Positions 24,801 through 43,100 of a stretch of DNA of 64,000 bases are shown here, in pieces (the stretch's first letter is position 1; every line of letters starts with the position of its first letter). The notes under the pieces were generated by a model, which ran no database searches, was not told the DNA's origin, and worked only from the letters and a program-made list of their open reading frames with translations. This DNA is from an uncultured Victivallales bacterium (GTDB lineage Bacteria > Verrucomicrobiota > Kiritimatiellia > UBA8416 > CAYOBW01). The stretch covers positions 1,968 to 65,967 of the forward strand of contig CAZKRK010000002.1 in the NCBI GenBank assembly GCA_964555035.1, read 5' to 3'. The position numbers were made by a program, and so were the translations under genes.

Positions 24801-26764
24801 TTGAGATAGAGGTGGTAGTAGCGACTGCGCGCATACGGCTGCCCCATTTCGCGGTGTACATCGCGCGTGAAGACGTCGTATAGCCAGGTAGCATACTGGG
24901 TATTCATGAACGCCCATGAGAAGTTCTGCCCTGTCCGCAGATCGAGACGCTTGTACGAATCCGCGCCCTCGTCACCAAACAGATCATACCGTAACCGAGG
25001 GGTGCCATACTCGGTCCTGAAGAACAGGCGGAACGAGTGCTTCGGATTGCCGGTCATTCGGCTCACACCACCCCGAATGCGCATTCCCCCGTCAATCTGA
25101 AACCCATCGCTTCCGTCAGGATGAAGCAGCTCCACGGACACGTCCCGCTCCCAACCCCTTCCGTCCTGCCAGGGATTCATGTAAATGCCGGTCATTTCAT
25201 CGAAGAAGTTACCCAGCTCGGAGACTAGCGATATGCTGGGTATGGCACGCAGAGCATCCACCATCAATCCGGAGTAACGCGAATCGTTCACGACATCCGG
25301 GTCCATGCCGTAGTCCATTGTCTGTCTTCCCAAGGGCTCACCCGCAGTCGGCCACTCCTCTGTGGGCCGAGTATCCGACTGCATGGCAACATCACTCGGA
25401 AAAAGGTAGGTCTGGGTGTCGATATCGCTCGGCGCGAATCCGGTCTTATAGGCCGCGGCACGCAGGATCGTCGTCCTGGCGATATGCACTGCCCCGATGT
25501 AGGCAGTCCCCGATGCGGGCGTAGGCTCAGACCCGTTGAGTGAGTAGTAGATCTCCGCACCTGCCGTCTTGCAGCTAATCGCCACATCGAATGCGTTCGA
25601 GTAAACTCCGCGCTTCACCGAGAACGTAGTGTCGGCAACATACCCATCTACTCCACTCGAATTGACCTCGCCCGGGCTGGGGGTAGTCAGAAAAGCCATA
25701 CTGGCCGGCTCCGTGTCATCGACCTTCACGCCACGCAATTCGGGAAGAATGAGTAAGTCTGAGCTATTCACAGAAGCGTTCAACCCCTGGATGGCGAGGA
25801 CATTCGTGCCGGCTACCAGTGCGGCCATAGCTGCCGGGGGAACCGTGAAGCTATCGAACCTGGACAGATTGGCTTCGTGGTTTGCGGTGGCGGAGCTGTT
25901 CCACTGCAGGAGCGCCGGGGCATTGGCTGAAGCCAATGGCACACCGTTGAGCCAGGCAGCAAAGCCATCGTCATACTGGATGCGAAAAGCCAGACTGGAG
26001 AACTCGGAGACACTCGAGACAACAAAGGGTATGCGAATGTAGGCAGACGGGGTGACGCCCCGCATCCCCCCAACATCCAGACCGATGACACCCCCGTAGC
26101 CGCTTTCATGCTCGTAGCCTGCCCCGGTCACGCCGCTCAACCAAAACGCATCATCGTAGGTGCGTTCATACCAACCTGCAACCGAGTCTATCGGAACCAG
26201 TCCCCTCGCATCACTTCCCCGGAGCACAAAGGGCGTGACATTGAGCAGGGAAGATCGGCCATAAGAGATGTCCCTGTCCTGCTTCGGGTAGTCGCTGATC
26301 ACATCGACAACCGTCACGCCGTCGGAAGCGGTGAGAACAACACTCTCGTGCTGCTCCCCATCGTTGCTGGAAAGCCTGTAGGTTGTGTGCAGGTAACCGA
26401 GAGAATCGACATACTCGTCTGTATCCTGACCCGAAGCGAACACAAGAAGATAGGCGCCCGCGGCAATGTTCGTGGAAGGAAACCGCCACTTCCGCGGATC
26501 GGTCTCATCGTCGCTCAAGTACCATCCGGTCAGATCAACCGTGTTACTGCCCGAGTTATGCAGCTCAATCCAATCCGATGACGCACCGTCGCCATCATCG
26601 ATCGTGGAACTGTTGCGCGCCATGAACTCCGTGATCAGCACGTCCGCCGACAAATACGGGACGGCGATGCAGAGAAACATCGCGTACAGGAGAGCGGATA
26701 GCGGCTGCGACCTCAGGGCCGGGAGAGATAGAGGGAGCGTTCTCAAACTTGGCATTCCTTGCAT
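21815..26764 (-). CDS. Giant secreted CotH-kinase-family protein (1649 aa) with four or more lamin-tail (LTD) domains and a C-terminal TSP3/dockerin-like calcium-binding segment
   Basis: LTD motifs: ITEFMARNSSTIDDGDGASSDWIELHNSGSNTVDLTGWYLSDD, RVTEIMYHPAAP...HEFIELLNTGTQTV, LVINEVLSHQDHDNPGDWIELYNAGTNTLDINGWFLSDD, VISEIHYHPSDSNAFEFIELHNT. CotH block: GGMRIRGGVSRMTGNPKHSFRLFFRTEYGTPRLRYDLFGDEGADSYKRLDLRTGQNFSWAFMNTQYATWLYDVFTRDVHREMGQPYARSRYYHLYLNGVYWGLYQSEERPDARF. C-terminus: DRDGDGMPDTWEITHFG...DEDRDGDGASNREEWYAGTDPTN...FYRISVEQ. Confidence 0.8.
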   Translation of the reverse strand: MQGMPSLRTLPLSLPALRSQPLSALLYAMFLCIAVPYLSADVLITEFMARNSSTIDDGDGASSDWIELHNSGSNTVDLTGWYLSDDETDPRKWRFPSTNIAAGAYLLVFASGQDTDEYVDSLGYLHTTYRLSSNDGEQHESVVLTASDGVTVVDVISDYPKQDRDISYGRSSLLNVTPFVLRGSDARGLVPIDSVAGWYERTYDDAFWLSGVTGAGYEHESGYGGVIGLDVGGMRGVTPSAYIRIPFVVSSVSEFSSLAFRIQYDDGFAAWLNGVPLASANAPALLQWNSSATANHEANLSRFDSFTVPPAAMAALVAGTNVLAIQGLNASVNSSDLLILPELRGVKVDDTEPASMAFLTTPSPGEVNSSGVDGYVADTTFSVKRGVYSNAFDVAISCKTAGAEIYYSLNGSEPTPASGTAYIGAVHIARTTILRAAAYKTGFAPSDIDTQTYLFPSDVAMQSDTRPTEEWPTAGEPLGRQTMDYGMDPDVVNDSRYSGLMVDALRAIPSISLVSELGNFFDEMTGIYMNPWQDGRGWERDVSVELLHPDGSDGFQIDGGMRIRGGVSRMTGNPKHSFRLFFRTEYGTPRLRYDLFGDEGADSYKRLDLRTGQNFSWAFMNTQYATWLYDVFTRDVHREMGQPYARSRYYHLYLNGVYWGLYQSEERPDARFGESYFGGDSDDYDTVKADAGSGRMYAADGTTNAYCGRFRDGIDDGVTDNAVYFRLQGMNADGTRNPDYPCYLDVDNVIDYMLTVFYTGNRDSPLGPPGSVDQPRNCIAVFNRNDPVGFQYIAHDSEFSLEVSQADALTINRVSVQLGPSLDERENFNPWWLHVKLTGNTEYKMRLADRIHRHFLNDGVLTPDVAGALFSKRKAEIDLAVIAESARWGDAVTIHNPYTRDDDWLPVVDSILNHYIRAAHESRTEIVLNQLKGAGLYPGVAAPVFAQHGGLFTSGFALSISSTDSVYYTLDGSDPRAIGGGIAGALYSTPLPLTRNTVVKARAFGAGGVWSALTEAVFTIDTPTTLRVTEIMYHPAAPSPAQSNLTANSHEFIELLNTGTQTVGLAGIAFTNGIRFDFTEGDVATLDPGEYVVLVQDIDGFKSRHTNWHTTNIAGEYRGRFFLPGALDDAGETLALRDGAERTIQSFRYDDDWYVLTDGDDFSLTLLDAQADAGAWSNASSWRASARTGGTPGRAPEAFISADSLVINEVLSHQDHDNPGDWIELYNAGTNTLDINGWFLSDDEDEPTKIAVSNVAAILPGSYAVLTEHAHFGTNAVATNGFAFSELGDAVCLTSGESGVMTGYRDYREFEAAPRDETYGRHLCRDGTVDFAPMRAQSSGSGNTAPRVGPVVISEIHYHPSDSNAFEFIELHNTADTSVPLYDVSYPSNTWRLRGAVRFSMPTGVVMAAGETLLVAPTNAAAFTNMYTVPSGTRVLSPYEGMLNNAGERLSLKRPGDPDPVTGDIPWIPVEWVDYDSKAPWPTEPDGGGSSLLRVELLAYANDGVSWAASTNGPTPGVAAVDNSDRDGDGMPDTWEITHFGSTNAVNGGSDEDRDGDGASNREEWYAGTDPTNAMSVFSIDSLEAGGSDCVLRWHSASGRFYRIWRGTNLAQPLGDAKAGPLPATPPENVHTVGQDSIPAAFYRISVEQ

Positions 26765-26773
26765 CTCCGGTAC

Positions 26774-27450
26774 TTATGGCATTGACACTTCAAGTCGATA
26801 GTAGCGCTTGGGCACGGCGTTGGTGTCGATCATCATGTCATTCGTGCCGGATCCCGGCCGCGGGCCCTGCCCCAATATGTTGTCCCAGTTGGTCTGCATC
26901 AGGTCATCAATGAACTGCAGGACATACACCCGTCCCGTACTGGAATCGAAACGGACCGCCATGGAATTGGTCACCAGCAAACCCGTCAGACGGAGGTAGG
27001 AATTGGAGTCGGTTGGGTCCGTATCCGCAATGTACTCCTGAAGGTCCGAGTGTGGGTCACTGTCATGGGCCGTCGTGTCGTTGGCGTTGGTTGTGCTGCC
27101 CCAATACAGCAGCTCCCACGTATCGTCTATGCTGTCCCCGTCATCGGGCGGAAAGCCACCCGCATCTACTGTAAACCCGAAGTTGAGGTTCCCGACCCAG
27201 CAGCAGTTGGCGCCGGATTCCTCGGTGATGGTGCAGACGGTCTGCGGCGCGGTGAACACGTAATTATCGACGTCGGCGCCCAGACTATCACCGCCCACGC
27301 TCCAGGTACCCGAACTGAACCAGTCGAAATCAAGTCCCGTAAACCCGGCAAATGTCAGGCCGGTGGTCTCCGTTGCGGCAGCCCCATTCAGGCCGTAAAC
27401 CGCATTGCTCACTGAAAAGACCAAAGTCTCGTAGCTGTCGATGCGTTTCG
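26774..27450 (-). repeat. Direct DNA repeat (about 0.7 kb, high identity) encoding the C-terminal domain plus the end of the last module. The closest copy is at 32138-32830. Lower-identity copies lie at 36994-37450, 43486-43930 and 50250-50700.
   Basis: By eye, 27100-27300 and 32480-32700 are about 90% identical or better (example shared string: ccagcagcagttggcgccggattcctcggtgatggtgcagacggtctgcggcgc). The antisense ORFs in the track are near-duplicates: 27075..27263 versus 32376..32636, both ending QQQLAPDSSVMVQTVCGAVNT, and 27166..27351 versus 32539..32724. Confidence 0.7.
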
Positions 27451-30400
27451 GCTTACCTCCGCCATCACCCGTACTCGCCACACCAAAGTAGGCGGAGGCG
27501 TCTTTGCGTGTTGGGCGACATTCAGTCTTCGTAGTGGCGGCTTCGATCCATACCTCAAAGCTCAAGGTATCGGTATCGTTCCCGTCATCATCGAGATTGG
27601 CGTCAGTCACCGTGAACGTCCACTTGTATGGATTGGGAGTGCCGCCGATCGCCATGCTCAGCCACTCACCCGTGGGCGTGTTGGTGATCGCCAGCGATCC
27701 ATTCGTGCATGTAGCCGAAGCGGCGAAGCTGCCTCCGTCGGCAGCGCCAAAGTCCGTAATCAGAACCTGCATGCCGCCTCCCGACGGTGCCGTGACCGTG
27801 CCGGTCAGCGAAACGTCCAGTGGGTCGGTGTCAGGATCGTTGGATCCGATCTGCAGTGTGGCGGTGTGCGTCCCGGTATCTGTGCCCGGCGCATACTCCA
27901 CCGTCAGGTTGGTCTCCCCTCCGGCAGCTACCGTACCGGTGCCACCGGCAACGACCGAGAATTTGCCCGTATCCGTTCCACTGAAGCTAAGATTCGTGAT
28001 GGACAAAGGTAGTGTACCCACATTGCTCACCGTTACGACCAGGTTGCTGATTGTGTTTGTCGGCATCGTGCCGAAATCCAACGACGACGGAGACACCCGG
28101 ATATCGGGCTCGGATAGGGCCGTCGTATCGACCTGGAACGCGATGTTGCCGATACGCCACTGCCCAGATGCCACCTCAGCGGTCAATGTGCCCACGGGCG
28201 AAGCAAAAGTCAGATCGACATTATCGCCGCTCATCGTTTCGCCGCCTATGTTGATCGTCCCTCCGGAGAATCGGTCTATGAACACATAGGTAAACCCGAG
28301 GAACGAACCCATGTTGGCGCCCACAGGTTCCCCGTCCAACCCATAGGTCACGCTGCTGACAGAGAAGGTCAGTATTTCACCGGTATCCAGCCGATCATTG
28401 GCGCCTCCTGAATGGGTAAAGTAGTCGAATCCACTCCGCGTGGGCTTGAAGCCGCTGTTCGCCTCGATCGACACAAGCCACTGCATGGTGTCGTTCGCGC
28501 CGCCGACCCCGTTAAGGTCGGCACCGGTAATGGTGAAGGTCCAGATAAAGGGATTCGGACTGCTTCCGCCAGCCGTCGAAAGCCACTCGCCCGTCGGTGT
28601 ATTGGCAACCGTCACCGTTCCGTTGTCGGAATCCGCGTTAGCCCCTGGATTGAATTCATTCGCTTGGAAATCACTGATCGTGACCGTCGTATCCGGGAGG
28701 GACTTCGTGGCCGCGATCAGGGCAAGGTTCGTCGGGTTAGTATCCGGGTCATTGGACCAGATATGCAGCACGGCACTGTGCGTTCCCGGACTCGCTGCGG
28801 CCGAATATCGCACGGTGATGTTGGTCGAGCCCCCCGCCCCGACCACACCCACGCCACCCATGACGGAAAACCTACCCGCATCCGTTCCGGTGAAGGTGCA
28901 GTTGGTCACATTCAACACGGCCAGTCCCATATTGGATATCTCTGCCGCCAAGTCCCTGGTCCTGTTGACCGTGTTGCTGCCGAAATCCAGCGGCGAGGCC
29001 GTAATGATGGCGATGTCCGGCTCGACGGTATCCAGCGCCCGGCCTTGGAGTGAGACCTCCGCAGGGTTAGTGTCCGGATCCGGGGACCAGATCCGCAGTG
29101 TGGCAGTGTGCGTGCCCACCGCCGCGCCCGGCGCATATTGCACCGTCAGGTTGGTCTCCCCTCCGACGGCGACCGTACCGGTGCCGCTATCGACAATGGA
29201 GAACTTGCCGAAATCCGCTCCGGCGAAGGTCAGATTGGTGATGGGTAGCGGCTGGCCGCCCATATTGAGCACGTCTACGCTCAGATTGCTGGTCGTTCCG
29301 GTCAGGAGCGTTTTGTAGTCAAGCGCGGAGGGTGTCACATCGATGTCGAACGGAGGCAGGCTCGCCATGTCCACTCTAAACCCGAAGTTCAGGTTGCCAA
29401 CCCAGCAGACACCGCCGGCGGTGTTGGTCACGAGCAATTCGCTCTGATCCTCGCTCAGGACAAGATCGGCAACATCCTCGACGACACTGTCCCCACCGAC
29501 ACTCCAGACACCAGAGGCCCAATCGACGTCTCCGCCGCTGAAACCGTCGAAGATCAGACCGCCGGTCCGATTGGTGGGCCCGCCGTTCAGGCTGTAGGCC
29601 GCGTTGGTCACCGAGAATAGCAGGGTCTCGGTCTCGGCGAGCCGCGTCGGGTTTCCCCCGCCTTCGCCTTCGCTCCCCACCCCGAATCTCCAGGTCGAAC
29701 CATCACGGGTTGGTCGGCAATCCGCTCCCGAAGCCGTCGCCGTGACCCAGACTTCCCAGGTCAGCGTGTCGTCGTTATCGCCATCGAGGTCGGCTCCGGT
29801 AACCGTGAAGGTCCACCTATACGGGTTGGGTGATGATCCGGCTGTCTGCTCCAGCCAACTGCCGGTGGGCATGCTGCTGATGGTCAACGTCCCATTCGCA
29901 CAGGTCGCCGAAGGCGCATTGCCACCGCCATCGCCCGCGCCAAAATCGGTGACAAGGACCTTAGCACCGGGCGGTTCCGTGCCCGTCACAATGTTGGTCC
30001 AGTCAGAATAGCCCGAAAAACTCCCACCCAGGTTGGCGTTCGTCGCACCAACACGATAGAAGAATCGCGTGGACTCCATGCCCGTTTGGTGCACCCATTG
30101 CGTCGCCACAAGCTCGTGATGACCGGTCACCGCCGATCCCTCCTGATAGTACTCCACCACGAATCCCGTGCCGTGGTCGTCTTGGTCACTCCATCCGAGA
30201 ATGACTCTCGAGTCGTTTGTCGAGATGCCGGTGATCGTCGGGGTCTGGGCCGCCGATAGATCCGTTACCAAGCTCATCTTCGCTGATGGCATCGGATTCC
30301 ATACCTCATTACTGGCCATGAATCGCAGCCAATACTCGGTGTCCGCATCAAGCCCCGTAAGCCAGGCCGTAACCACACCGCCCGTGGTCACCGGAAGCGT

Positions 30401-31408
30401 CGCGTTGGTGTAGGCCCATCCGCCAACCGGTTTCTCTATGACATCCCACTCCAGCGTCACGGTGGTATTCGTCGGAGGATCCACGTACAGAGATCCCACA
30501 GCCAACGCATTGGACGTGGTGATCGTCTCGTTGGATACCGCCGCGCTATCCCAGCGCAAGTAGAGATCGTCCACCCCCATGTCTTTTGTATCGGCAATCC
30601 ACGCGTCCATCAGTGCCCGCATCTCATCGACCCTGGTCTGGTGTTCCACCGCATCGATGAGGTTGGTGACCTCATGCGGGTCAGTCAACGTGTCGTAGAA
30701 CTCCTCGTCCGGCTTGGGACTCGTGAAGAAAAGAGCTTGGTCCGCATTGAGTTGCCCAAGGTCGAACATCTCCAGCATAGTCGGCCGCATCGGTCGGTGC
30801 GACCTGATGTAGCCGCAGTCCCAGTACCCCAGCTCCGGCTTGTAGTTACGGATGTATTTGTAGCGGGTATCTCTAACGCTCCTGATTATGTCAGTGACTG
30901 AGTCGACCCTATCGCGTGCACCGTAGATATGGGTGCGTGGAACCGCATTGGAACCAATGAATGGGTGCCCGTCGTACCAATCCGGCACCTCCACCCCCGC
31001 GATATCCAGAATGGTCGCCGTCACATCAATCTGACTGAGCAGGTTCGTGTCGGTCGTGCCGGGTGCCAAATGCCCCGGCCAGCGGATGACAAGCGGCACG
31101 CGCATTCCATAATCGTAGAGCCAGGTTTTGCCACGCAGGTGACAGATCCCATTGTCACCCATGAAGATCACGACCGTGTTGCTGGCGATACCCTCGCTCT
31201 CGAGACGATCAAGGATCTCGCCAACCTGGGCATCCATGTACTCCATGGCATCCAGGTAAAGCGCCCAGTCGTCGCGGACGACCGGATGGTCTGGATAAAT
31301 AGGCGGGAACACGACCTCATTAGTGCTGACAGGGTCCGCCGATGCATCGCGGTACGGCTGCCAGCCGGCACCGTCATGCCGGTGCGTGGCAGTCAGCGTG
31401 ATCTGGGC

Positions 31409-31413
31409 AAAAA
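31409..31413 (-). other. Frameshift site: T5 homopolymer on the coding strand (AAAAA on the plus strand). The paralog implies T6.
   Basis: Frame N reads cag ccg ttt ttg ccc aga tca cgc tga. Frame C reads cca gcc gtt ttt gcc cag atc acg. Only about 10 codons are open in both frames, and they bracket the run. Confidence 0.6.
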
Positions 31414-32137
31414 CGGCTGGCTATTAGCGGCGGACCAATTGCCCCCGTCAAAGAGAGGGCTCGTCGTAACGAAATTATGGTCTGTTTTGTCGCTGTAGTC
31501 GACACCGCAGCCGTTGGCCGTGTGGTAGCCATTCTCCTGAAGCAGATGCGTGAAAGGCTTCATGCCTTCCGGAAGAACGATGTTCCTGCGCCGCTGGTCC
31601 TGCGTGTCCGTCCTCGTCTGGTAGACGCCAACTAACATCGCGTTGCGGCAAGGCGTGCAGGTCGATGAAGTCCCAAAGACTTCCGTGTACTTGACGCCCG
31701 CGGCAGCCAACCCGTCTATGTTGGGCGTCTGAACAGCCGGATGACCATAGCACGATTGCTGTTTGCCGATGTCCTCGGCCATGATCCATACGATATTGGG
31801 CACATCTCCCGCAGCTTTCGCGCCGCCGAACACGCACGTGGCCAGCGTTATGCCGAATGCGGCGGCATAGAGACAGCACCGCACGGCCTTGCCAAAGAAT
31901 CCAAATCTGTTTCCCATTCCTGTGCCAATCACCCTTCCTGCTTTCTCTCGTCACCCGCCGCTTCTTCGTCTTCGCCAACAGTCATGCCCATGCTTCACAT
32001 ACACCCGCTCTCCCTTATGCATACCTCAAAAGGACCACGTGCACAACCGTGCCGGTGGCAACGTATCGGCCAGAAACATGCACGTCGCGCAACTTCCCGC
32101 TTGCGTTGCAAATGGTGAGCGGCCACAGGACTCAATG

Positions 32138-32830
32138 TTACGGAAGCGGCGGCAATGAGACCTCAATCCGATAGTGTCGCTGAAGCGGGTCATTGGTATC
32201 AATCATCACATCATTCGCACCAGATCCCGATCTCGGCCCCTGCCCGGGCACATTGCTCCAGGTCGTCTGCATCAGGTCATCGATGAACTGCATCACGTAA
32301 ACGCGCCCCGTGCTGGAGTCGAAGTAGACCGCCACGGAGTTGGTCGCGAGTAGACCCGTCAGACGGAAGTAGGAATTGGAGTCGGTCGGGTCCGTATCGG
32401 TGATGTACTCCTGCAGATCGGTGTGCGGATCCGTGTCGGACTTAGAGGTGTCGGTGGCGGTGCTGGTATCGCTGAAGTACTTCAGCTCCCAGGCATCGTC
32501 TATGCCGTCCCCGTCGCCGGGCGGAGAGCCACCCGCATTCACCGTGAACTCGAAGTTGAGGTTGCCAATCCAGCAGCAGTTGGCGCCGGATTCCTCGGTG
32601 ATGGTGCAGACGGTCTGCGGCGCAGTGAACACGTAATTATCGACATCGGCGCCCAGGCTATCACCGCCCACGCTCCAGGTGCCTGCGTCGAACTGGTCGA
32701 AATCAAGACCCGTAAACCCGGCAAACGTTAGCCCGAGGGTCTCCGTTGCGGCGGCTCCATTCAGGCCGTAGGCCGCGTTTGTCACAGAGAACGTCAGCGA
32801 CTCGCCATTATCATCAATCCGCCCTCGGGT
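32138..32830 (-). repeat. Second copy of the direct repeat described at 26774-27450
   Basis: Same evidence as for 26774-27450; these are the 3' ends of adjacent giant genes. Confidence 0.7.
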
Positions 32831-35800
32831 GGAGTAGTTGTTGTCGCCGGAGCTGGCCACACCAAACCACATACTGTCGTCCTCATGCTTGTGAGAAGGC
32901 TTCAATACAGTCCCGTTACCCCCCGCCGCCGTAATCCAGACTTCCCATGACAGGGTGTCCGTATCGTTCCCATCGCCATCCAGATCGGCATTGGAGATGG
33001 TGAACGTCCACTTGTAGGTATCGTCCTTGTCCGTGGCATCGTTGGGTCCAAACCACTCCCCGGTGGGGGTATTGGCAATGCTTAGGCTCCCGCTATCACT
33101 CGTGGCCGAAGGCGCGCCCGACCCACCGTTGGCCGCACCGAAATCGGTGATATGCACCGTAACGATAGAGGAGGACAGGGAGGTTCCCGTCAGCACCACA
33201 TTGGTCGGGTTGCTGTCCGGATCATCCGACCAGATATGCAGTGTGGCGCTATGTATTCCCACATCCGGCCCGGGCGTGTAGCGCACGGTGAGATTGGTCG
33301 ATGCCCCGACGGCTACCGTCCCCGGACCGCTCACAACGGAGAACCTGTCCGCGTTCGTTCCGCTGAAGGTGAAATTCGTAGTAGACAAGGGTTGTGACCC
33401 CACATTGTCCGCCGTCACGACCAGGTTGCTGGTTGTGTTCGTCAGTATCGTCCCGAAGTCAAGCGCCGTGGGAGCGGCGATAATATCGGGTTCATTGGAG
33501 TATATGACCTCGACGGTTACCTCCTCCGAGGCATCTGAGGCATCATTACACCCGATGGTCAGATCGACCGCATAGCCGCGGTTTCCACCACCGGGCAGCG
33601 TCGTGTCGAGTTGCAGATTGATGTGGCCGTTAGCGGCCGATTCCAGGTTGTTCGAGTAGCTCGCAACGCTGAAGTAGTTGCTGTCCGCACCACCTATCTC
33701 GATGGGCGGCGCCCAGAACAGCCGCAGTGTGCCCGCGCCGTTGTTGGCGAAAGCTACCGGCAAAGCCTTGGGAGAGCCGGCGTGCACAAATTGCTGCGTG
33801 CGCGCCGCCGCGAAATCGGGTCCCGGAGCCGTTGGCCACCAGCCAGGCACCCCGCCTTTCACCGATCGGTAAGTGGAGTCAGTTGGATCCGGCACACTAT
33901 ACACATGCCCTGCCGGCAGGTGCTCGGTTGTCGGGTCCCAGAACGGATTCAGTTCGGTCGGCACAGGGGCTTCGGTTGCCGTGCGCCATGCCTGCATCTT
34001 CGCGACAAGTTCCTCAAGCACAACGGGATGGGTTGAAGCAAGGTTGTTCGTCTCGCCAATGTCGCTGCTCAGGTCATACAGCTCGAAATGCTCCGTGTCG
34101 AAAAACTCGAGCAGTTTCAAGTTGCCCTCACGCATCACCGTACAAGGCATGCCCTTGAAAAAGATTGAAATGGAGTCCGGATCATCCTTCCCCGGAGAAT
34201 TCTCAATGTAGGTCGGGAAATGCCAGAATATCGGACGCGTCGGCGCGGCCTGAGCGCGCAGCAACGGCATCAGGCTGATGCCATCCAGAGGCTGCACGCC
34301 GGCGCCGGTCGGCGGTTCCGTTGACGTATAGTCAAGGAAGGTCGGATAGAGGTCGATCTGGCTCACCGGCGTACTGTTCGTCGTGCCGCCCGTTGTTACA
34401 CCGGGACAGCGTACCATGAAGGGCTCACGAATCCCTCCCTCGTAGAGCATGCTCTTCCCGCCGCGCAAGGGATCTGCGTTGGAGTGCAACTTATGTGTGC
34501 CGTTGTCGGATGTGAACACCACCATGGTGTTCGATGACAGACCGGCGGCATCCAGGTAGCCAAGGATGTCACCGACCGCGATATCCATCGCTTCGACCAT
34601 GCCGGCGTAGTTAACATCGAAATGCTCGGCATTATAGGGCTTGGCCTCGTACTTCTGACCGATGTCGTAGCGGCTTTTCCACGGACCATGAGGCGAGTAG
34701 AAACAGAAATTGAGGAAGAACGGACCCGTATCCTTGTGCGTCTCCATCCAATCGCATGCCTCTTCCGCCAGGCGCGCGGGAAGATGCTCGCCGGTGAGTC
34801 CGTCGGGAAGATTCACGTTCTGATACGGGGAGAAATAGGAATTCGGGAATCCCTTTGAGTGCCCACCGATATTGATGTCGAATCCATGCGGAGTGGGATC
34901 GCCACCCAGATGCCACTTCCCGAGATGACAAGTCTGATACCCGTTCGCTTGCAAGGCTTCCGCAAGCGTAACGTGACTGGCTGTCAACTTAGAACCGCTG
35001 CCAATGGGCTTGAGTCTGCGACGGGCCAGGGGGCCCAGATCGGCCGAGTTCACCGTGTATATCCCTGTGCGAGGCGGATAGGCTCCGGTCAACAGTGCCG
35101 CACGTGAAGGCGCGCAGTTACCGGCGGGCGCATACGCATCCGTGAATACCATGGCATCTGTCGCAAAGTGGTCGATGTTCGGTGTCTCGTAATACTCGGA
35201 CCCCGCGCAGGACAGGTCCGTGTAGCCCAGATCATCAGCATAGATCAGCACAATGTTCGGGCGCGGCGTAGACGCGACACCCGTACCGCGAAGCAGGATA
35301 TTCGTCGAAGGCGTGTCCGGATCATTGGACAAAACATGCAGCGTAGCATTGCTGAATGTGCCCAGTCCCGTTCCCGGCGAGAACCGTATCAGCAGGTTGC
35401 TCATGCCTCCGACCGGAATCGTGCCGGTTCCGCTCACGAAGGAGAACTTGCCCGTATCCGTACCGCTGAACGTCACATTGGTGATGTCCAAATCGATCAC
35501 GCCCGTATTGTCGACCTTCACCGCCAGCGTCTTGGTCGTGCTGGTTCCGACCTGTCCGAAGTCCAGCGGCGAAGGGGTCCGGATGTTGATATCGGGAGCA
35601 GGAACAAACGCTTCGCCCTGAAGCACGATGTTGGTCGGGTTCGAGTCCGAATCGTTGGACCAGATATGCAGCGTGGCCGAATGGTTCCCCGCGCTACTGC
35701 CTGGCGAGTAACGCACGGTGATGCTGGTCACTCCCTCTGCGCCAACGGCGCCGGTCCCACTGACCACGGAGAACTTGCCCGTATCCGCACCGCTGAACGT

Positions 35801-36979
35801 GAAGTTAGTGACGTTCAGAACACCCGCACCGCTATTGATCACCGTCACGGCGCGATCGTCGGTCGTAGTGACCGCAATCACGCCAAAATCCAGTGGCGAG
35901 GTCGTAGAAATCGCAATATCGGGCTCAATGTCCGTAACCGTCCTCCCCCGCAGGGCCACATCCATCGGACTCGCCTCAACATCATCGGACCAGACATGCA
36001 CGGTTCCCGTGTGGGTCGCGTCGCTACTGCCCGCGCTGTAGCGTACTGTGATACTCGTCGACGACCCGACCGCAACACTGATCGGCATGCTTTCCAGAAC
36101 GCTGAAGGCATTCGATCCGCTGAAGGCGACGTTGGTTACGTTCAATACCCCCAACCCCGAATTGGTGATCGTCAGGATCAGGTCGCTGGTGGTGTTCGTC
36201 AGGATCGGCCCGAAATCCAGATCGTCGGGTGTCACGCCGATGACGGGAGACGCCGCAAGAACCACACTGAAATCGAAATTGATCTCGCCGGGCCGGGCAA
36301 ATCCTTTGGCTCCGGGTACCACGCTCATCGAGTTCACGGGCGTGCCGAAGACGGCCTCGGTGTGTGTGCCAACATCAAAGGTCTCGCCTCCGATGGTCGC
36401 ACTGTCGTTGCCCACTTCGAAGTCGCCACCCGCAAAGCCATCGAAGGTCAAGCCGGAAACACGATTGGTGGCTCCCCCGTCCAGGCTGTAAGCCGCATTG
36501 GCTACCGTGAAGGTCAGGGTCTCGTCGTTATCGATGCGACGCCGTTTGCTCGCATTATCGCCCTGACTTGCGACACCAAACTGCTCGGTATTGTTGTTCT
36601 TGGACGGCATCAGCAGCGGTCCCGGACCGGTCGCCGCCATCCAAACCTCCCAGGTCAAGACATCACCGCCGTCGCCGTTCAGTTGAAGGTCGGTGACACT
36701 GAAAGTCCATTTGAAGACGTCGTCTTTGTCGACGAGATCGTCCATCAGCCAGGAGCCCGTCGGCATATTTGCAATGCTCAGCGTGCCGTTGGCGCAAACG
36801 GCCGTGGGCCTACCGGCACCATCGTCGGCGGCGCCGAAATCAACGACGGAAACCGTTGTCGTAGTGGACTCCGCAAGAGCAACCACTCCGCCAATCCGCA
36901 ATAGGAGCAAACCTGCAAGCAACCCGCCGCGGGAAATGCTTGACCTCAAGAATGCACTATTCACCCTTCCGTCCTCCAC
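32138..36979 (-). CDS. Giant secreted protein (1613 aa) with an S1 sulfatase domain embedded mid-protein (about 33950-35263). Upstream of it: one novel module and five choice-of-anchor-D (ASH) domains. Downstream: a sulfatase-associated beta region, one ASH domain, a second novel module and the conserved C-terminal domain.
   Basis: Signal peptide-like GGLLAGLLLLRIGGVVALA. ASH repeats such as PDIAISTTSPLDFGVIAVTTTDDRAVTVINSGAGVLNVTNFTFSGADTGKFSVVSG...ATLHIWSNDSDSNPTNIVLQG. Sulfatase block: RPNIVLIYADDLGYTDLSCAGSEYY, GNCAPSRAALLTG, GKWHLGGD. C-terminus: DGDGIDDAWELKYFS...DTDPHTDLQEYITDTDPTDSNSYFRLTGL...RHYRIEVSLPPLP. Confidence 0.8.
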   Translation of the reverse strand: MEDGRVNSAFLRSSISRGGLLAGLLLLRIGGVVALAESTTTTVSVVDFGAADDGAGRPTAVCANGTLSIANMPTGSWLMDDLVDKDDVFKWTFSVTDLQLNGDGGDVLTWEVWMAATGPGPLLMPSKNNNTEQFGVASQGDNASKRRRIDNDETLTFTVANAAYSLDGGATNRVSGLTFDGFAGGDFEVGNDSATIGGETFDVGTHTEAVFGTPVNSMSVVPGAKGFARPGEINFDFSVVLAASPVIGVTPDDLDFGPILTNTTSDLILTITNSGLGVLNVTNVAFSGSNAFSVLESMPISVAVGSSTSITVRYSAGSSDATHTGTVHVWSDDVEASPMDVALRGRTVTDIEPDIAISTTSPLDFGVIAVTTTDDRAVTVINSGAGVLNVTNFTFSGADTGKFSVVSGTGAVGAEGVTSITVRYSPGSSAGNHSATLHIWSNDSDSNPTNIVLQGEAFVPAPDINIRTPSPLDFGQVGTSTTKTLAVKVDNTGVIDLDITNVTFSGTDTGKFSFVSGTGTIPVGGMSNLLIRFSPGTGLGTFSNATLHVLSNDPDTPSTNILLRGTGVASTPRPNIVLIYADDLGYTDLSCAGSEYYETPNIDHFATDAMVFTDAYAPAGNCAPSRAALLTGAYPPRTGIYTVNSADLGPLARRRLKPIGSGSKLTASHVTLAEALQANGYQTCHLGKWHLGGDPTPHGFDINIGGHSKGFPNSYFSPYQNVNLPDGLTGEHLPARLAEEACDWMETHKDTGPFFLNFCFYSPHGPWKSRYDIGQKYEAKPYNAEHFDVNYAGMVEAMDIAVGDILGYLDAAGLSSNTMVVFTSDNGTHKLHSNADPLRGGKSMLYEGGIREPFMVRCPGVTTGGTTNSTPVSQIDLYPTFLDYTSTEPPTGAGVQPLDGISLMPLLRAQAAPTRPIFWHFPTYIENSPGKDDPDSISIFFKGMPCTVMREGNLKLLEFFDTEHFELYDLSSDIGETNNLASTHPVVLEELVAKMQAWRTATEAPVPTELNPFWDPTTEHLPAGHVYSVPDPTDSTYRSVKGGVPGWWPTAPGPDFAAARTQQFVHAGSPKALPVAFANNGAGTLRLFWAPPIEIGGADSNYFSVASYSNNLESAANGHINLQLDTTLPGGGNRGYAVDLTIGCNDASDASEEVTVEVIYSNEPDIIAAPTALDFGTILTNTTSNLVVTADNVGSQPLSTTNFTFSGTNADRFSVVSGPGTVAVGASTNLTVRYTPGPDVGIHSATLHIWSDDPDSNPTNVVLTGTSLSSSIVTVHITDFGAANGGSGAPSATSDSGSLSIANTPTGEWFGPNDATDKDDTYKWTFTISNADLDGDGNDTDTLSWEVWITAAGGNGTVLKPSHKHEDDSMWFGVASSGDNNYSTRGRIDDNGESLTFSVTNAAYGLNGAAATETLGLTFAGFTGLDFDQFDAGTWSVGGDSLGADVDNYVFTAPQTVCTITEESGANCCWIGNLNFEFTVNAGGSPPGDGDGIDDAWELKYFSDTSTATDTSKSDTDPHTDLQEYITDTDPTDSNSYFRLTGLLATNSVAVYFDSSTGRVYVMQFIDDLMQTTWSNVPGQGPRSGSGANDVMIDTNDPLQRHYRIEVSLPPLP

Positions 36980-36993
36980 ATCTTCTGATTCTC

Positions 36994-39900
36994 TTACTCC
37001 GGCAACGAGACCTCAACGCGATAGAATCGCTGAAGTGAATCGTTGCTGTCGATCATCATGTCGTTTGTGCCGGTCCCCAGCCGCGGCCCCTGTCCCGGCA
37101 CGTTGTCCCAGTTGGTCTGCATCAGGTCATCGATAGACTGCATCACATACACGCGCTCCGTGCTGGAATCGAAGGTGACGGCCATGGAGTTGGTCCTTCG
37201 TAGATCGGTCAGCCGGAAATATGAGTTGGAGTCGGTCGGATCCGTGTCGGTAATGTACTCCTGCAGATCGGTGTGCGGGTCCGCGTCGGAGAAGGTGGTT
37301 TCGTTTGCGTTGGTCAAACCACTCCAGTACCTCAATTCCCACGCATCGAGAATTCCGTCTCCATCGGTGTCGCCAGCATCGACCGTTCCGGCCTGCCGGA
37401 CCTCGAGTTCAATGGCTCCCTCACCATCAATCTTCATTCCCAAGCCATTGTTGGCGGTCAAAGTTGCCTGCTTCAGGAAGAACCCATGATTCACAGCGCC
37501 GCTAATCCAGTTGCTGACAATGACCGTCACATCCACGCTGAAATTGGTGCCGGTGGTCGGTGCCCCCGAAGTCCTGATGGGTCCGGCATTGATCGTAGCG
37601 GTCGTCGCCGGCCCGAACGGATCGGCCGCCGTTGCCCAGTCCTCGGTCAGGCGAAGCACCTCCAAATCCGTATTGTACGATCCTCCGCCTTTATCATTCA
37701 AGGAGTATCCACGAAAAGAGAGCGTGGCGCCGGTAACCTGCCTTTCGCCGAGAGATGCTAAGTCGAACTTTACATAAGCTCTCACCCTTTTGTCCAGATC
37801 GCTGCCGTTGCCGCGCGTGTACAGCGTTGTTGTGAACTCGGCAGGATCACTGCCGCCAACATCGAACTTGTCGATGTTGTTGGAGTCATCGCCGGGGATA
37901 TCGCCGTGGCCGTCAACTGTATTAAACGCAGGCGACGTGAGAACCGTCGTGGTTCCCGTGGAGACGACGGCCTCACCCGTCACCTGATTGGTCCAGTCGG
38001 AATAGCCCGAGAAACTGCCGCCGAATTCGGCGTTTGTCGCGCCAACGCGGTAGAAAAAACGTGCGGATTGCACACCGGTGTAATGGGTCCAGTTCGTCGA
38101 TGCCGTCTCTTGATGCCCGGTTACGGCCGAACCCTCCTGGTAGTACTCCACCACGAATCCCGTCCCGTTGTCGTCCCAATCCACCCACTCCAGAGCGATA
38201 TCCGTGCCGTTTGACAAAATACCGCTGATAGCCGGGATCTGAGTCACCGAAAGATCGGTTACCACTCTGGTCGCCATCGATGTGTCGCTTCCGTCCACCT
38301 CATTGGTGGCTGTAAACCGGAACCAATACTCCGTATCAGCCACGAGCCCCGTAAGCCATGCGGTGACTATTCCGCCCGTGGTATCGGGTAGCGACGAGTT
38401 CGTGAACGCCCAACCACCAGTGGGAGCATTCGTCGTGTCCCACTCCAATGTTACGGTCGTATTCGACCCCGAAGGCACTTCCAACGTGGCGTAAACTTGC
38501 GCATTGGTGGTCGTCACCGTCTCGTTCGATACCCCCGCATCCGACCAGCCAGACACCGTCGGCGCCACGTATACCGTGTCACTATTGACCGCATCAATCC
38601 ATGTTTCCAGTTCGAGCTGGAGCCGTGCCGCCACCTCTGGCTCCGACGCGGCGATGTTGGTTGTCTCCTTGACGTCGGCAAGCAGGTCGTAGAGCTCGTA
38701 CGAACTCCCCCCGTTCTTACTGATCAGCTTGTATTGCTGTGTCACCCACGAGCGGTCATTACCAAACCGGAATCCGATCGGACTCAACCGAGAGGAACTG
38801 AACGTCTCGTTGGTGATGAGCGGCATCAGGCTGACTCCGTCGATCGGCTTCTGGTTCGTGACGCTCAGATCCAGAGCATCGATAATCGTGGGGTAGTAGT
38901 CGCTCGTCACGCAGGGATAATCGGTAGTCCGTGCGATAGGCACCTTCGCCGGCCACTCCAGCAAGCCCGGCACACGCACCCCCCCCTCATGCAGACTGCG
39001 TTTTCTCGCGCGCAAGCCCCCGGACTTGCCAGGCCCGTTCTCAGGCCCGTTATCGCTGCAGAACCACAGCATCGTGTTGGTGCGTACACCCAGGCTGTCG
39101 AGTTCCGTTCGCAATCGTCCGATTTGCGTATCCATACCCTGAATCGCATCCGTATAGGCATCGGGGGAGTCCGCGCCCGACACCTGTTCCGGATCCATCA
39201 CCGGGCGGTGCGGCGTGTGGAACCAGACCACCGCGAAGAATGGCTGGTTGCTTGCTACGGCATTCTGGATAAACGGGACAACGCGGTCCATCATCACCCT
39301 CGAATCGTCCCCGCTCATGTTGTTGGTAACGGCCACGGCTACCCCTTCACCCGTGCTGTTGGTCCAGGTAGCGGGATCAAGCGGCGGCGTCCAATAGTGT
39401 GTCCCATAGAAATTGGTGTCTGCAAAATCAACCGGCTCCGGTAACCCGTTTTGATCCATGCGCATCGGGTGGTAGGTGGGCACCTTCGCCTCGGTAGCAA
39501 AGCAGGTGTCGTATTGGTGATGCCAGGGCGGCGAGTAGTGGGCCGTCAAGCCGGGCTCACCACGGTTGGAGTCATTTCTTAGCGTCGTCAGCGTGCCGAG
39601 ATGCCACTTTCCGAAGTGAGCACATTGGTAGCCCGCATTGTCCAGGACTTCAGAAAGCGGGGTTTCGTCTCGCCCAAGGTGGCCCGCATTCGCGTTCTCA
39701 ACACCCACCCGAAACGGGTTGCGTCCGGTCAGGCAGCTCGCGCGTGTCGGGGAACAGACGGCACAGGCAGCATAGAAGCGGTCAAAGCGCAGCCCGCTCG
39801 ATGCCATGCTGTCAAGACTCGGTGTGTTGATCCAGCCATCGTTGTAGCTCGGATCGCCCCAGCCCATGTCATCCGCCATCATCAGAATGATGTTGGGATG

Positions 39901-40011
39901 GTTGGTTGCCGCCTGAGCAGCAAAGGGAACACAACACACCGACAGGAGCATTACAGGAAGCAACCACCTCGCCGCACAATATGATCTTTGCGTCCAAATC
40001 CACATAAACAT
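36994..40011 (-). CDS. Large secreted S1 sulfatase (about 1005 aa) with C-terminal fn3-like domains, an unknown beta domain and the conserved C-terminal domain
   Basis: Track ORF 36994..40074. The probable start is MFMWIWTQRSYCAARWLLPVMLLSVCCVPFAAQA (signal peptide) at 40011. Sulfatase block: PNIILMMADDMGWGD, CAVCSPTRASCLTG, GKWHLG. The C-terminal fn3-like stretch (TVTLEWDTTNAPTGGWAFTNSSLP...GFVVEYYQEGSAVTGH) is shared with 26774-31312. C-terminus: DGDGILDAWELRYWSGLTNANETTFSDADPHTDLQEYITDTDPTDSNSYFRLTDL...QRFYRVEVSLPE. Confidence 0.8.
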   Translation of the reverse strand: MFMWIWTQRSYCAARWLLPVMLLSVCCVPFAAQAATNHPNIILMMADDMGWGDPSYNDGWINTPSLDSMASSGLRFDRFYAACAVCSPTRASCLTGRNPFRVGVENANAGHLGRDETPLSEVLDNAGYQCAHFGKWHLGTLTTLRNDSNRGEPGLTAHYSPPWHHQYDTCFATEAKVPTYHPMRMDQNGLPEPVDFADTNFYGTHYWTPPLDPATWTNSTGEGVAVAVTNNMSGDDSRVMMDRVVPFIQNAVASNQPFFAVVWFHTPHRPVMDPEQVSGADSPDAYTDAIQGMDTQIGRLRTELDSLGVRTNTMLWFCSDNGPENGPGKSGGLRARKRSLHEGGVRVPGLLEWPAKVPIARTTDYPCVTSDYYPTIIDALDLSVTNQKPIDGVSLMPLITNETFSSSRLSPIGFRFGNDRSWVTQQYKLISKNGGSSYELYDLLADVKETTNIAASEPEVAARLQLELETWIDAVNSDTVYVAPTVSGWSDAGVSNETVTTTNAQVYATLEVPSGSNTTVTLEWDTTNAPTGGWAFTNSSLPDTTGGIVTAWLTGLVADTEYWFRFTATNEVDGSDTSMATRVVTDLSVTQIPAISGILSNGTDIALEWVDWDDNGTGFVVEYYQEGSAVTGHQETASTNWTHYTGVQSARFFYRVGATNAEFGGSFSGYSDWTNQVTGEAVVSTGTTTVLTSPAFNTVDGHGDIPGDDSNNIDKFDVGGSDPAEFTTTLYTRGNGSDLDKRVRAYVKFDLASLGERQVTGATLSFRGYSLNDKGGGSYNTDLEVLRLTEDWATAADPFGPATTATINAGPIRTSGAPTTGTNFSVDVTVIVSNWISGAVNHGFFLKQATLTANNGLGMKIDGEGAIELEVRQAGTVDAGDTDGDGILDAWELRYWSGLTNANETTFSDADPHTDLQEYITDTDPTDSNSYFRLTDLRRTNSMAVTFDSSTERVYVMQSIDDLMQTNWDNVPGQGPRLGTGTNDMMIDSNDSLQRFYRVEVSLPE

Positions 40012-40120
40012 GTTTCGAATTGCTCGTACTTGATATGCTATTCTGTGCTTCACCTTTCCCGTCCTGTTAATCATCTTTTCTCAGCGAATCATTACTTCAC
40101 CCAAACTTCCGCACAAACCA

Positions 40121-43100
40121 TCATGGGCGTTGGGGAGCGTTGGCCTTGATTCGATAAAACGCCTTCCTCTGCAATGAAGAATTGAGAAGTACGCGGGTCG
40201 TGTTTGTGTCCAGTGTGCCTCCTATGTGAGATCGGACAGTGCTCCACATTGCCGAAACAAGATTGGTCGAGCGCTCAATGTCGTAAAGGAAGCACTCGCT
40301 AGACTCGAAGCCGATGCCAAAGGCTTCACCGTTTGGGTCGGTTACCAACTCCGTGACCTGAAACGATCTGGGGTCAGGCACATCCCACAGGGGTTGAAGC
40401 TCACCAAGAGCCAGAAAGCCATCGGTGATGCTAAACTCGTCGATAAGGCCGTCGAAAGCACTGTCGATAACGCCCGAACCATTGAAATGCGCCCCAATAA
40501 CCAGCGGGCCATCGTTAGCCGTACCGGTGGACGTCGTGGAGTGCGTCTCCGCCCTGTCGTTGAGGGTGAAACGTACCGTGTTCGAGACGGAGTCCAAGGC
40601 GACACTGATATGGTGCCAGCCGGTGTCGTCGATCGAAAGAGTGGAGATCACGACCGCCGAACCGAGGTGTAGCGCAAGATTGCCGTAGGTCGTCGCATCA
40701 CCATAATTACCTGCTGCCGCCAGGAACATGTAATCCAGGTCAGTATCGACGCCACCGATAACGTTCTTTGTCGCAACCGGCATGCAACTGGCGGCGTTGG
40801 GGCCCGTGGGCAGCGTCTCACACTTCACCCAAGCCTCAATCGTGAATGGAGCGTTGCCGAAGTCGAGCTCACGCGCATCCGAAACCTGCACGTAGTTCTG
40901 ATCATCTCTCTCAAAATCGAGTGAAAGTGCATTGGTCTCACCCACGACGAAGTCGGACGTCGCGGGCACGTCGGAAGAAAAGACCGGCAGCGTACCGCCA
41001 TTACCGCTGTTCGCGCTGCCGTCGTTGCCGAACGGGAAGCGATCGACCAGAGTTTCAGCAACCCCGCCGACGACACCGTCCTCGAAACGCAGCAGAGTAC
41101 GGTCACCGAGAAATGCATATGGATCGCCATTATCGACTCGCTCCTGCATGAGGATTTCTTCCAGGTGCTGGCGCACGAGGGCGTAGGCGGGCCAATTGGC
41201 AAGGTTGGGAGCGCCATGCTCGGGCAGGAGTTCAAAGGGATTCTCATGCAAATCGAATAGCTGCGTGACCTGGGTTGCGTCGGCACCGACGTCATACTTG
41301 ATCATTTTGAAGCGCCCGTCGGTGACGGCACGCATACCCGGCTTGCTACCGCCGGAGTAAAAGCCGTAGAGATGATCACGGTGGGTTGCACCGGGGTTTT
41401 CAAGCACAGCCCCAAAGCTGCGCCCGTCGTTGCCGTCAATGGTGGCAGGGAGATCCAGACCTACGAGATCACAGAACGTGGGAAATGTATCATGGAGGTA
41501 AATCAGTGCATCGGTTTCGGTCCCGGGAGCGATACCGGGGCCGCGCACGACATATGGTACGCGCCAAGTGTGTTCGTAGAGATTCTGCTTACCCTGGAGA
41601 CCGTGGCGGCCGATCGCGATCCCGTGGTCCGTAGTGAAAACGATGTAGGTGTTGTCAAGGACGCTGTCGTCCTGGTTGCCGTCACCATCGGGGTCATCCA
41701 ATCTCGCAAGGACGCGGCCGATCTGTCGGTCAATCCAGTCCACGCAGGCAAAATGGCGCCCGACTTCATTGCGAATCACCGCCTCGGTGCGATACTTACC
41801 GACCCCGCTGACGCTTCGCTCGTCACGGACATTGAGGTGGCCGTGGTCGAACGGGTGCGCTGGATAGGTCAACGGCGTGCACGAAAGGTGGCTGAGAGGT
41901 AGCGGGGGGGCATCAGGATCGAGCACCAGGCTGTCCGGACTGGTGGTATTGATGCAATGGTAGCGGCCGGCCAGGTCCGGGCTGGTTCGGGCGCTCCGTG
42001 TGTCATGCGGGTGGGAGAAACCGAGATAGATCAGGAACGGCTTATTGCCCGGACGATGATTGGCCTGCCAGTGGTCGATGTAATCGATGCCGTGATCAGC
42101 GTGCCACTCGCTGCCATGGCCATCAGTGTTCCCGCGCTTGGTGACATCGTTCCTGATGTTGAACTCGTCGTTCGCGGTGTCATAGGTGTTTGCGTACTTG
42201 CAGGTACGATACGTGGCGTACGGAATATCGTTCGTTCCGCTGCGCACCCCACGATTGAAGATGCCGGGAAAAGTCACCGCTCCGGTCACGCCTTCGGTAC
42301 GTTGCCAACTGTTCTTGCCGCTCATAATGCAGGTGCGTGACGGCGCGCAGACCCCCGCTTTAGTAGAACCCATCAGGCGCATCTGATGAAAAAGCATGCC
42401 CTCATCAGCAAGCCGGTCGATGTTAGGCGTGTCCACAACATACGGGTTGCCCGCGGCATCCGTTTCGGAAGGTTCAGTGCGACGATACGCGCCAACTGAG
42501 TAGGTGTCCTGGTCGTCGGTGATGATAAACAGGAAATTGGGCGGCGCGACGGCTGGATACGGCACGGCAGACACCTCGCTACTGACAGCGGACTCCGCAC
42601 TGTCCACGTTAACGGCAGACAGCACGTAGTAGTAAGAAACACCGTTTGTGAGACCGGTGTCGGTATGGGTGCTCGCTGTCGGGGTCGCAATCTCGCTGTA
42701 CGGGCCGCCGGCAGTTACGGATCGCCACACGATGAAATTCGAAAACCCGTATTGGGTATTGTCATTCCAGTCCAAAACAACGGCTTGATTGACTGGTGTC
42801 GCAATAAGATTACTGGGCACATCGGGAGGCTCCACCGATCCCAGCTTGGTTACCAGAATCGCATTGAAATGCACGTTGCCGAAACCATTGACGGCATGGG
42901 TCAGCAACTGAGTACTGCCGGAGGCCGTAAACGAGCCAACAGAAAACTCTCCCCAACCGCTACCATCCGACATGATGTCAACATTGCCGGGAGAAGCCTC
43001 CCCGTCACCGTACGTCATAACGCGACCGCTGGTGCTGCTACGCTGATCGTTGTAGAAGACCTGAATCAGGTAGTTTGTGCCTGTCGTCAGCCCGCCAATA

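Follow-up and report, generated by a model that had tools for sequence, protein, structure and literature searches.

The stretch analysed here (hereafter the window) covers 64,000 nucleotides of a contig from an uncultured Victivallales bacterium and forms a long run of minus-strand genes, with nearly all genes on that strand. Besides a thioredoxin-like protein and an HpiC1-like beta-sandwich protein, the window encodes a GH29 fucosidase, a GH59 protein, two GH43-like proteins and three free sulfatases, and because of this combination the locus fits the degradation of a fucose/galactose-containing sulfated glycan. Domain scans recovered eight sulfatase domains (in the genes at 15313, 18873, 20420, 26774+31393, 32138, 36994, 40121 and 50250) and five different multi-domain layouts, in agreement with the numbers given in the initial annotation of the window. 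We focus here on one of these genes, 32138..36979, whose product carries a sulfatase domain between arrays of non-catalytic modules. Sulfated glycans of algal and host origin constitute major pools of carbon, and the rate at which they are degraded is limited by desulfation. To our knowledge, bacteria of the Planctomycetes-Verrucomicrobia-Chlamydiae (PVC) group encode hundreds of sulfatases, nearly all of the studied ones being single-domain proteins.

The gene 32138..36979 is a single unbroken open reading frame (ORF) of 1613 codons counted from its first GTG. The start calls differ between sources: the ORF opens with the GTG at 36979, the NCBI/ENA record begins at the GTG at 36964 (residue 6 in our numbering, 1608 aa), and the JGI call lies 31 codons downstream, so that the signal peptide is lost. 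Because the sequence GGAGGA is located 8 nt upstream of the second GTG, and because NCBI/ENA call a product of 1608 aa, this second GTG is probably the true start. Modules were mapped with hidden Markov models (HMMs) built on the window's own copies. The layout obtained was signal peptide-X-D-D-D-sulfatase-d-D-X-TSP3-CTD, in which D stands for an Ig-like choice-of-anchor-D domain, d for a degenerate copy of it, X for a module of about 205 aa and CTD for a C-terminal beta unit, with 570 residues ahead of the sulfatase domain and 565 behind it (Table 1). The initial annotation had placed one module and five ASH domains ahead of the sulfatase; the leading module, which is the first X, was recovered, but the HMM map gives three Ig-like domains at this place instead of five. 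The additional beta domains and the shared C-terminal unit that it described behind the sulfatase correspond to d, D4, the second X and TSP3+CTD.

The embedded sulfatase turned out to have a close free relative 12 kb away in the window. Residues 571-1048 are 57-59% identical to residues 51-523 of the stand-alone 536-aa sulfatase encoded by 18873..20483 (BLASTP among window proteins), the homology beginning exactly past the signal peptide of the latter and stopping 13 residues before its end. A 45-aa C-terminal extension is common to these two proteins and absent from all other homologues. By comparison, the aligned sulfatase domains of the other giants (50250, 36994, 40121 and 31393) are only 23-37% identical to the domain studied here. 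When the domain by itself was searched against 5.8 billion proteins, we obtained 5083 matches at E <= 1e-60; the best 120 of these were all 344-516 aa long and consisted of sulfatase domains only, with the window's own free paralogue at the top. In P0082, the closest foreign relative (66% identity), the domain comes immediately behind a signal peptide. As judged from these alignments, the embedded domain corresponds to the mature part of an ordinary stand-alone sulfatase, joined precisely and in frame between two Ig-like domains.

Such an arrangement could in principle be an artefact, either an assembly chimera caused by the repeats that code for Ig domains or the result of reading through three neighbouring genes. 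The region is indeed rich in paralogous repeats, a neighbouring gene carries a homopolymer frameshift (see below), and the data all come from metagenome assemblies. We nevertheless regard this explanation as extremely unlikely. The gene shows 0 nucleotide differences among three JGI metagenome contigs from different samples, and the NCBI/ENA record encodes the same product apart from the called start, so that all four assemblies are identical in the gene. The frame is kept across both domain junctions, and the identity of only 57% to the nearest paralogue argues against a collapsed copy. Finally, no hydrophobic or signal-peptide remnant was found on reading the junction between D3 and the sulfatase, where the linker is ASTPRP, which argues against a simple read-through of adjacent genes.

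Table 1. Features of the gene 32138..36979 and window genes sharing its C-terminal tail. Positions refer to the window and residues to the 1613-codon frame.
Feature	Residues	Positions	Strand	Evidence
Whole gene		32138..36979	-	ORF list and translation
Signal-peptide-like N-terminus, (M)NSAFLRSSISRGGLLAGLLLLRIGGVVALA followed by E	1-37	36869..36979	-	read from the sequence
Module X, copy 1	39-245	36245..36865	-	local HMM
Ig-like choice-of-anchor-D / HYDIN-ASH domain D1	246-350	35930..36244	-	NCBIfam, Pfam, local HMM (E 5e-41)
Ig-like domain D2	355-460	35600..35917	-	NCBIfam, Pfam, local HMM (E 2e-47)
Ig-like domain D3	464-570	35270..35590	-	NCBIfam, Pfam, local HMM (E 2e-42)
S1 formylglycine-type sulfatase domain	571-1048	33836..35269	-	PF00884, SGSH_C, alignments to paralogues and PDB chains
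Formylglycine motif C622-A-P-S-R626 (Cys type), then AALLTG	622-626	35102..35116	-	aligned to 9fo1 and 6ust
Degenerate Ig-like domain d (tentative)	1063-1161	33497..33793	-	local choice-of-anchor-D HMM only (E 0.011)
Ig-like domain D4	1165-1270	33170..33487	-	NCBIfam, Pfam, local HMM (E 2e-47)
Module X, copy 2	1271-1487	32519..33169	-	local HMM
TSP3-like acidic repeats, GDGDGIDDAWE...DTDPHTDLQEYITDTDPTD	1488-1536	32372..32518	-	tail alignment
C-terminal beta unit (CTD), ending ...RHYRIEVSLPPLP	1537-1613	32141..32371	-	common to 7 window proteins
Other genes with TSP3 and CTD		21815..26764, 26774..31312, 36994..40074, 43486..50190, 50250..55466
Gene with the beta unit but without TSP3		40121..43468

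The sulfatase domain itself is intact. Pfam PF00884 matches residues 574-885 (E 1.4e-56, 192.5 bits for a cut-off of 25) over profile positions 1-299 of 301, and SGSH_C matches residues 842-991 (45.8 bits). The segment 33950..35263, in which the initial annotation had recognised an S1 catalytic domain in the middle of the 1613-aa protein, corresponds to residues 573-1010 and is indeed the sulfatase domain, and the motifs RPNIVLIYADDLGYTD, GNCAPSRAALLTG and GKWHLGGD that it quoted are present. A loss of the Cys or of catalytic residues, raised at the same time, was not observed: careful alignment recovered the complete catalytic and metal-binding set (D582, D583, C622, R626, K688, H690, H764, D825, N826 and K842). 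Among them, D582, D583, D825, N826, K688, H690, H764 and K842 align, respectively, with D18, D19, D263, N264, K123, H125, H201 and K287 of AMOR_S1_16A, whose active-site residues have described roles (PMC11760155), and C622-A-P-S-R626 aligns with CSPTR of 9fo1 and CSPSR of 6ust. Residues 571-1048 form a complete Cys-type formylglycine S1 sulfatase, with predicted activity.

In the PDB, the best match was 9fo1 (AMOR_S1_16A; E 1.3e-90, with 40% identity across 424 aligned residues), followed by 6ust (E 8e-82), 7STT and, lower down, 7oza (BT3796; E 1e-52). The entries 9fo1, 6ust and 7oza belong to the S1_16 subfamily (PMC11760155), which is common and induced in fucoidan loci of PVC bacteria (PMC11685898; PMC11760155). 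AMOR_S1_16A is a kappa-carrageenan exo-sulfatase in which Trp79 closes the S1_16 active-site pocket and His149 lies near a sugar subsite (PMC11760155). Neither residue is present in the domain studied here, since LTDW of AMOR_S1_16A and 6UST aligns with GIYT- and His149 is replaced by Phe711. Because the defining gating Trp was looked for and is absent, we call the domain S1_16-like only, a label that rests on the nearest solved structures and leaves S1_16 membership unconfirmed. The equivalent of Trp79 is also missing from the free paralogue and from all aligned close homologues, and the equivalent of Phe711 is found in both 18873..20483 and P0082; being common to stand-alone relatives, these are lineage features rather than signs of decay. 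The lost gating Trp and the His-to-Phe replacement suggest a subsite that is more open than, or different from, that of the characterised exo-acting S1_16 enzymes, and the domain, as a member of a Trp-less S1_16-like clade, could show a specificity not recorded so far or act in an endo mode.

The same two replacements, affecting residues documented for AMOR_S1_16A (PMC11760155), might alternatively mark a pseudo-enzyme that no longer hydrolyses sulfate esters and that binds sulfated glycan within an adhesin-like protein, and the scaffold does resemble adhesin-type repeats. With all catalytic and metal-binding residues intact, and with the missing Trp and Phe711 being features of the clade, we find this very unlikely. 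An active site without losses thus speaks against the pseudo-enzyme, just as the in-frame sequence recovered identically from independent assemblies speaks against the artefact.

The scaffold around the enzyme contains four clear choice-of-anchor-D copies and a degenerate one. NF012200 of NCBIfam matches four stretches (E 3e-54, 182 bits for a cut-off of 45), as does PF22544 (132 bits for a cut-off of 25.5), and PF15780 and PF07610 also match the Ig-like region; the degenerate domain d had no match in the Pfam scan. Module X was detected with the local HMM in 11 copies distributed among six window proteins: two in the protein studied here, three in 26774..31312, two in 50250..55466, two in 56193..58268 and one each in 43486..50190 and 58434..63947. 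It had no match in Pfam or NCBIfam and none in the PDB by Foldseek, a scan of metagenome contigs with the module X alignment found no relative outside this organism, and hhalign comparisons with the HpiC1-like protein of the locus and with a further module, Y (see below), gave nothing. The AF2 model of module X (predicted local distance difference test, pLDDT, 86.6) has 14 strands and is all-beta, so that X is best described as a predicted all-beta module that has not been described before.

Several observations bear on how this scaffold arose. The Ig-like copies of the paralogues are 32-60% identical in all pairings, without positional orthology; D4 reaches 60% with the equivalent domain of 26774..31312. 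The second X copy matches the last X copies of 26774..31312 and 50250..55466 with 70% and 54% identity, respectively. In the tail part of 50250..55466, the module types follow one another as in the protein studied here (X-D-D-D-[slot]-D-X-TSP3-CTD), but the slot is filled by another cassette, an unannotated module Y of about 175 aa (residues 1118-1300). Module Y is also found in 58434..63947 (residues 952-1127) and in 40121..43468 (residues 58-187). We considered a simple insertion of the sulfatase into a 50250-like protein and softened this scenario: the module types follow a colinear order, but clear orthology between paralogues (55-70% identity) is limited to the last D-X-TSP3-CTD block. 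This pattern resembles a history in which modules were shuffled repeatedly around a tail block that stayed conserved.

The initial annotation had seen in the five layouts a pattern fitting enzymes kept at defined distances from a surface or scaffold. Read as a molecular ruler, the Ig and X modules would by their number and order fix how far each sulfatase lies from the cell surface or scaffold, and the five layouts would act at different depths of a substrate layer. The position of the catalytic domain along the chain, as counted from the common tail, does vary greatly among the layouts, and Ig-like spacers holding carbohydrate-active enzymes off the membrane have been proposed for Bacteroidota (PMC11216935). 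However, the lack of positional orthology among the Ig copies is better accounted for by module shuffling than by a calibrated ruler. In addition, one of the five layouts is frameshifted, and the architecture is not conserved outside one population, giving no sign of selection on length. A ruler function is in our opinion quite unlikely. An equally good alternative to spacing is that the two X modules may serve as substrate-binding modules.

The last approximately 125 residues of the protein, made of TSP3 repeats and a beta unit that terminates with a YR-x-hydrophobic motif, are common to seven window proteins with unrelated catalytic parts: four sulfatase giants, a sulfatase-LamG protein, a CotH/lamin-tail domain (LTD) giant and an M11-like peptidase giant. 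PF18884 (TSP3_bac) matches the TSP3 unit in 21815..26764 and in related loci. The CTD matched no Pfam or NCBIfam model, and no CTD-type match appeared even at E up to 10. In a scan with one genome per species, full-length tail matches were found only in metagenome-assembled genomes (MAGs) of Verrucomicrobiota/Lentisphaeria, the best one being in a Victivallales MAG (57% identity). The tail ends at the stop codon in 15/15 full-length matches from Verrucomicrobiota loci. The tail proteins outside the window (loci L004-L014 and L018) include S8 subtilases, an M12B peptidase, GH57+CBM53 proteins, CotH/LTD proteins, PATR proteins and sulfatases, and tail-bearing genes occur side by side, up to four in a row. 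As the tail is strictly terminal on diverse secreted hydrolases, we infer that TSP3+CTD is a candidate sorting or anchoring tag, common to these proteins and specific to the phylum.

The tail could also be a secretion or folding aid, or be cleaved off, the protein being then a free or periplasmic enzyme in which the Ig and X modules provide solubility or substrate binding without any tether. This would agree with the absence of a transmembrane helix and of lipobox, PEP-CTERM, LPXTG or type IX secretion system (T9SS) CTD signatures, with the finding that PVC bacteria can degrade fucoidan outside the cell or after taking up the polymer (PMC11685898), and with the many relatives with long C-terminal tails that lack the TSP3+CTD unit. 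On the other hand, a same tail on seven neighbouring giants with unrelated catalytic domains, strictly C-terminal across Verrucomicrobiota, is typical of sorting or anchoring tags, and the Akkermansia muciniphila sulfatase Amuc0953, which has a CTD-like domain, is cell-bound and absent from the medium (PMC13524802). We consider a free enzyme possible, though doubtful.

We thus favour, with a confidence somewhat above even, a multi-domain desulfating enzyme that would be exported by Sec, localised outside the cell by its tail and active in a sulfated-glycan locus. In the cytoplasm, a maturase encoded outside the window would convert Cys622 into formylglycine, the internal position of the domain being no obstacle since the maturase reads the linear CxPxR motif. 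After export through Sec, the TSP3+CTD tail would send the protein to the same extracellular place, cell surface or matrix, as the six other tail proteins. The Ig domains would act as spacers and the two X modules would probably hold the polymer for the sulfatase, which would remove sulfate groups, likely at positions linked to galactose or fucose, ahead of the action of the glycosidases.

A number of points weigh against this scenario. The signal-peptide-like segment has an Arg within its hydrophobic stretch, and no maturase gene, either formylglycine-generating enzyme (FGE) or anaerobic sulfatase-maturating enzyme (anSME), was detected in the scanned ORFs of the window. As no relative of module X is known, glycan binding is a guess. 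Profile and sequence searches found no detectable similarity of the CTD to T9SS CTD models or to any PDB chain; the searches of PDB chains with the tail gave only a similarity of the TSP3 repeats to an OmpA-family protein and otherwise noise. The AF2 model of the CTD is unreliable (pLDDT 50), and the sorting or anchoring role is deduced from position and distribution only. Selective conservation is not demonstrable because the architecture occurs in a single population. More generally, localisation, activity and formylglycine formation are all predictions.

A broader scheme can be drawn from these elements, which taken as a whole we find unlikely. The locus would encode a set of extracellular enzymes defined by their tail, and this tail would be a Verrucomicrobiota-wide sorting or anchoring signal, similar in function to T9SS CTDs and unrelated to them in sequence. 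Sulfatases, peptidases and CotH/LTD proteins would thereby be brought together on a single surface structure. Module X would represent a new carbohydrate-binding family directed at sulfated glycans, and whole enzymes would be exchanged at the slot separating the Ig domains, so that the sulfatase would be one cassette of a machine for desulfation and depolymerisation assembled at the surface.

The neighbouring giants illustrate the diversity of the locus. The initial annotation treated 26774-31932 as a single giant with an N-terminal sulfatase; it consists in fact of two ORFs, 31393..31932 and 26774..31312, separated by a 1-nt deletion in a T-run near 31405-31415. The site reads cagccgTTTTTgcccag on the minus strand, and T6 would restore QPFFAQITLTATHR, as in the paralogue 20420..21781. 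Because the split gene calls (174 aa and 1512 aa) recur in three JGI contigs, this could be a real pseudogene, a phase-variable site or a systematic homopolymer error. The protein 40121..43468 is indeed a separate fusion layout, as previously proposed, but its sulfatase domain (residues 310-776, motif GVCAPSR) is also internal, so that the domain of 32138..36979 is not the sole embedded one. This sulfatase is the most divergent of the eight and, unlike the others of the window, had no PDB sequence relative at E <= 1e-30. The designation "one enzyme class" hides diversity, both in sequence (the 23-37% identity given above) and in the nearest solved structures, which differ among the giants.

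An orthologue of 40121..43468 (73% identical) is located next to an orthologue of 36994..40074 in the Victivallales MAG, so that the source of the window is most likely a relative within Lentisphaeria. This pair occupies a different neighbourhood there, since defence-like genes, encoding an LRR-Roc-COR-TIR protein and an AAA/AbiEii-like ATPase (L004, 13..4210), lie directly upstream. Two other tail-bearing giants of the window have no sulfatase part. The product of 21815..26764 (1649 aa) combines four lamin-tail domains, a CotH kinase-like domain and CHB_HEX_C/Fn3-associated domains with the common tail, and a similar CotH/LTD/LamG protein with the same tail is encoded in a Verrucomicrobiales MAG (L011). 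The product of 43486..50190 (2234 aa) contains a gametolysin (M11)/reprolysin-like metallopeptidase, PKD, PATR and divergent InlB B-repeat domains and the common tail, together with two choice-of-anchor-D domains, one X module and a Pel9A-like beta-helix (JGI annotation).

To evaluate the rarity of the embedded layout, residues 460-1275 (D3-sulfatase-d-D4) were compared with 1.84 billion representatives in an exhaustive HMMER search, which gave 5591 matches at E <= 1e-30. Among the best 149 of these 5591, 131 had a sulfatase domain and 71 were longer than 600 aa; at least 150 aa preceded the sulfatase in 14 and at least 150 aa followed it in 24, with none having both. Apart from the protein's own cluster, none of these 149 joined a sulfatase to choice-of-anchor-D or X modules. 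The top match (P0194) was rejected as an instance of the same architecture, as it is a 2712-aa protein with five tandem sulfatase domains and no Ig domains. Another match (P0213, 1259 aa) is a penicillin-amidase-sulfatase fusion. The search for full-length homologues was dominated by choice-of-anchor-D repeat proteins, and none of the 68 repeat proteins obtained with this query, again apart from the own cluster, had a sulfatase. Full-protein scans of genome contigs and metagenome contigs found no other relative. Multi-domain sulfatases thus appear to be common in metagenomes, the embedded layout being found nowhere else among the close relatives retrieved. We also found no paper pairing sulfatases with choice-of-anchor-D domains, and the nearest precedent in the literature is Amuc0953 (PMC13524802).

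When compared with known systems, the layout is uncommon and lineage-restricted, the enzyme class is ordinary and the kind of protein is already known. The enzyme is closest to the free paralogue 18873..20483 and to a clade of stand-alone sulfatases of about 455 aa from Akkermansiaceae, Verrucomicrobiaceae and Pirellulaceae (45-54% identity). It shares with both the NCAPSR motif and the absence of the S1_16 Trp, but these proteins consist of a signal peptide and a catalytic domain and nothing else, whereas the domain studied here has long flanks on both sides. With the S1_16 enzymes (9FO1, 6UST and 7OZA) it shares the fold, the Cys-type CxPxR motif, the Ca-binding D-D/D-N residues and the catalytic Lys/His set. 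The named members, such as the 6S-GalNAc sulfatase of H. hathewayi (6UST) and BT3796, are single-domain proteins of about 460-520 aa, in contrast to a domain embedded in 1613 aa, in which the positions of Trp79 and His149 of AMOR_S1_16A are a gap and Phe711. The scaffold is related to the choice-of-anchor D / HYDIN-VesB-like proteins (NF012200, PF22544), since its four clear copies score far above the family cut-offs. Long arrays of this kind are common in large secreted proteins of many phyla, as seen among the matches of the full-length query, but the repeat proteins retrieved have no sulfatase.

The closest overall resemblance is with Amuc0953, an S1_20 cell-surface sulfatase of the same phylum-level group with an internal catalytic domain, an N-terminal mucin-binding beta-helix, C-terminal PA14/Ig domains and a terminal CTD-like domain that its authors tied to surface localisation (PMC13524802). 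Both proteins have an internal sulfatase, an N-terminal non-catalytic region, and C-terminal Ig-like domains followed by a terminal tail. They differ by the subfamily and by the beta-helix and PA14 domains of Amuc0953, which has neither a choice-of-anchor-D array nor module X; its CTD is said to resemble T9SS CTDs, whereas the tail described here has no detectable similarity to T9SS or PDB sequences. The window therefore offers what would be an example of an ordinary periplasmic-type sulfatase redeployed as a cassette in a large extracellular scaffold, and its main value is to draw attention to module X and the TSP3+CTD tail, two building blocks not described so far. The tail may account for the way in which large enzymes reach the cell exterior in Verrucomicrobiota, a question raised, and not solved, by the recent work on Akkermansia (PMC13524802).

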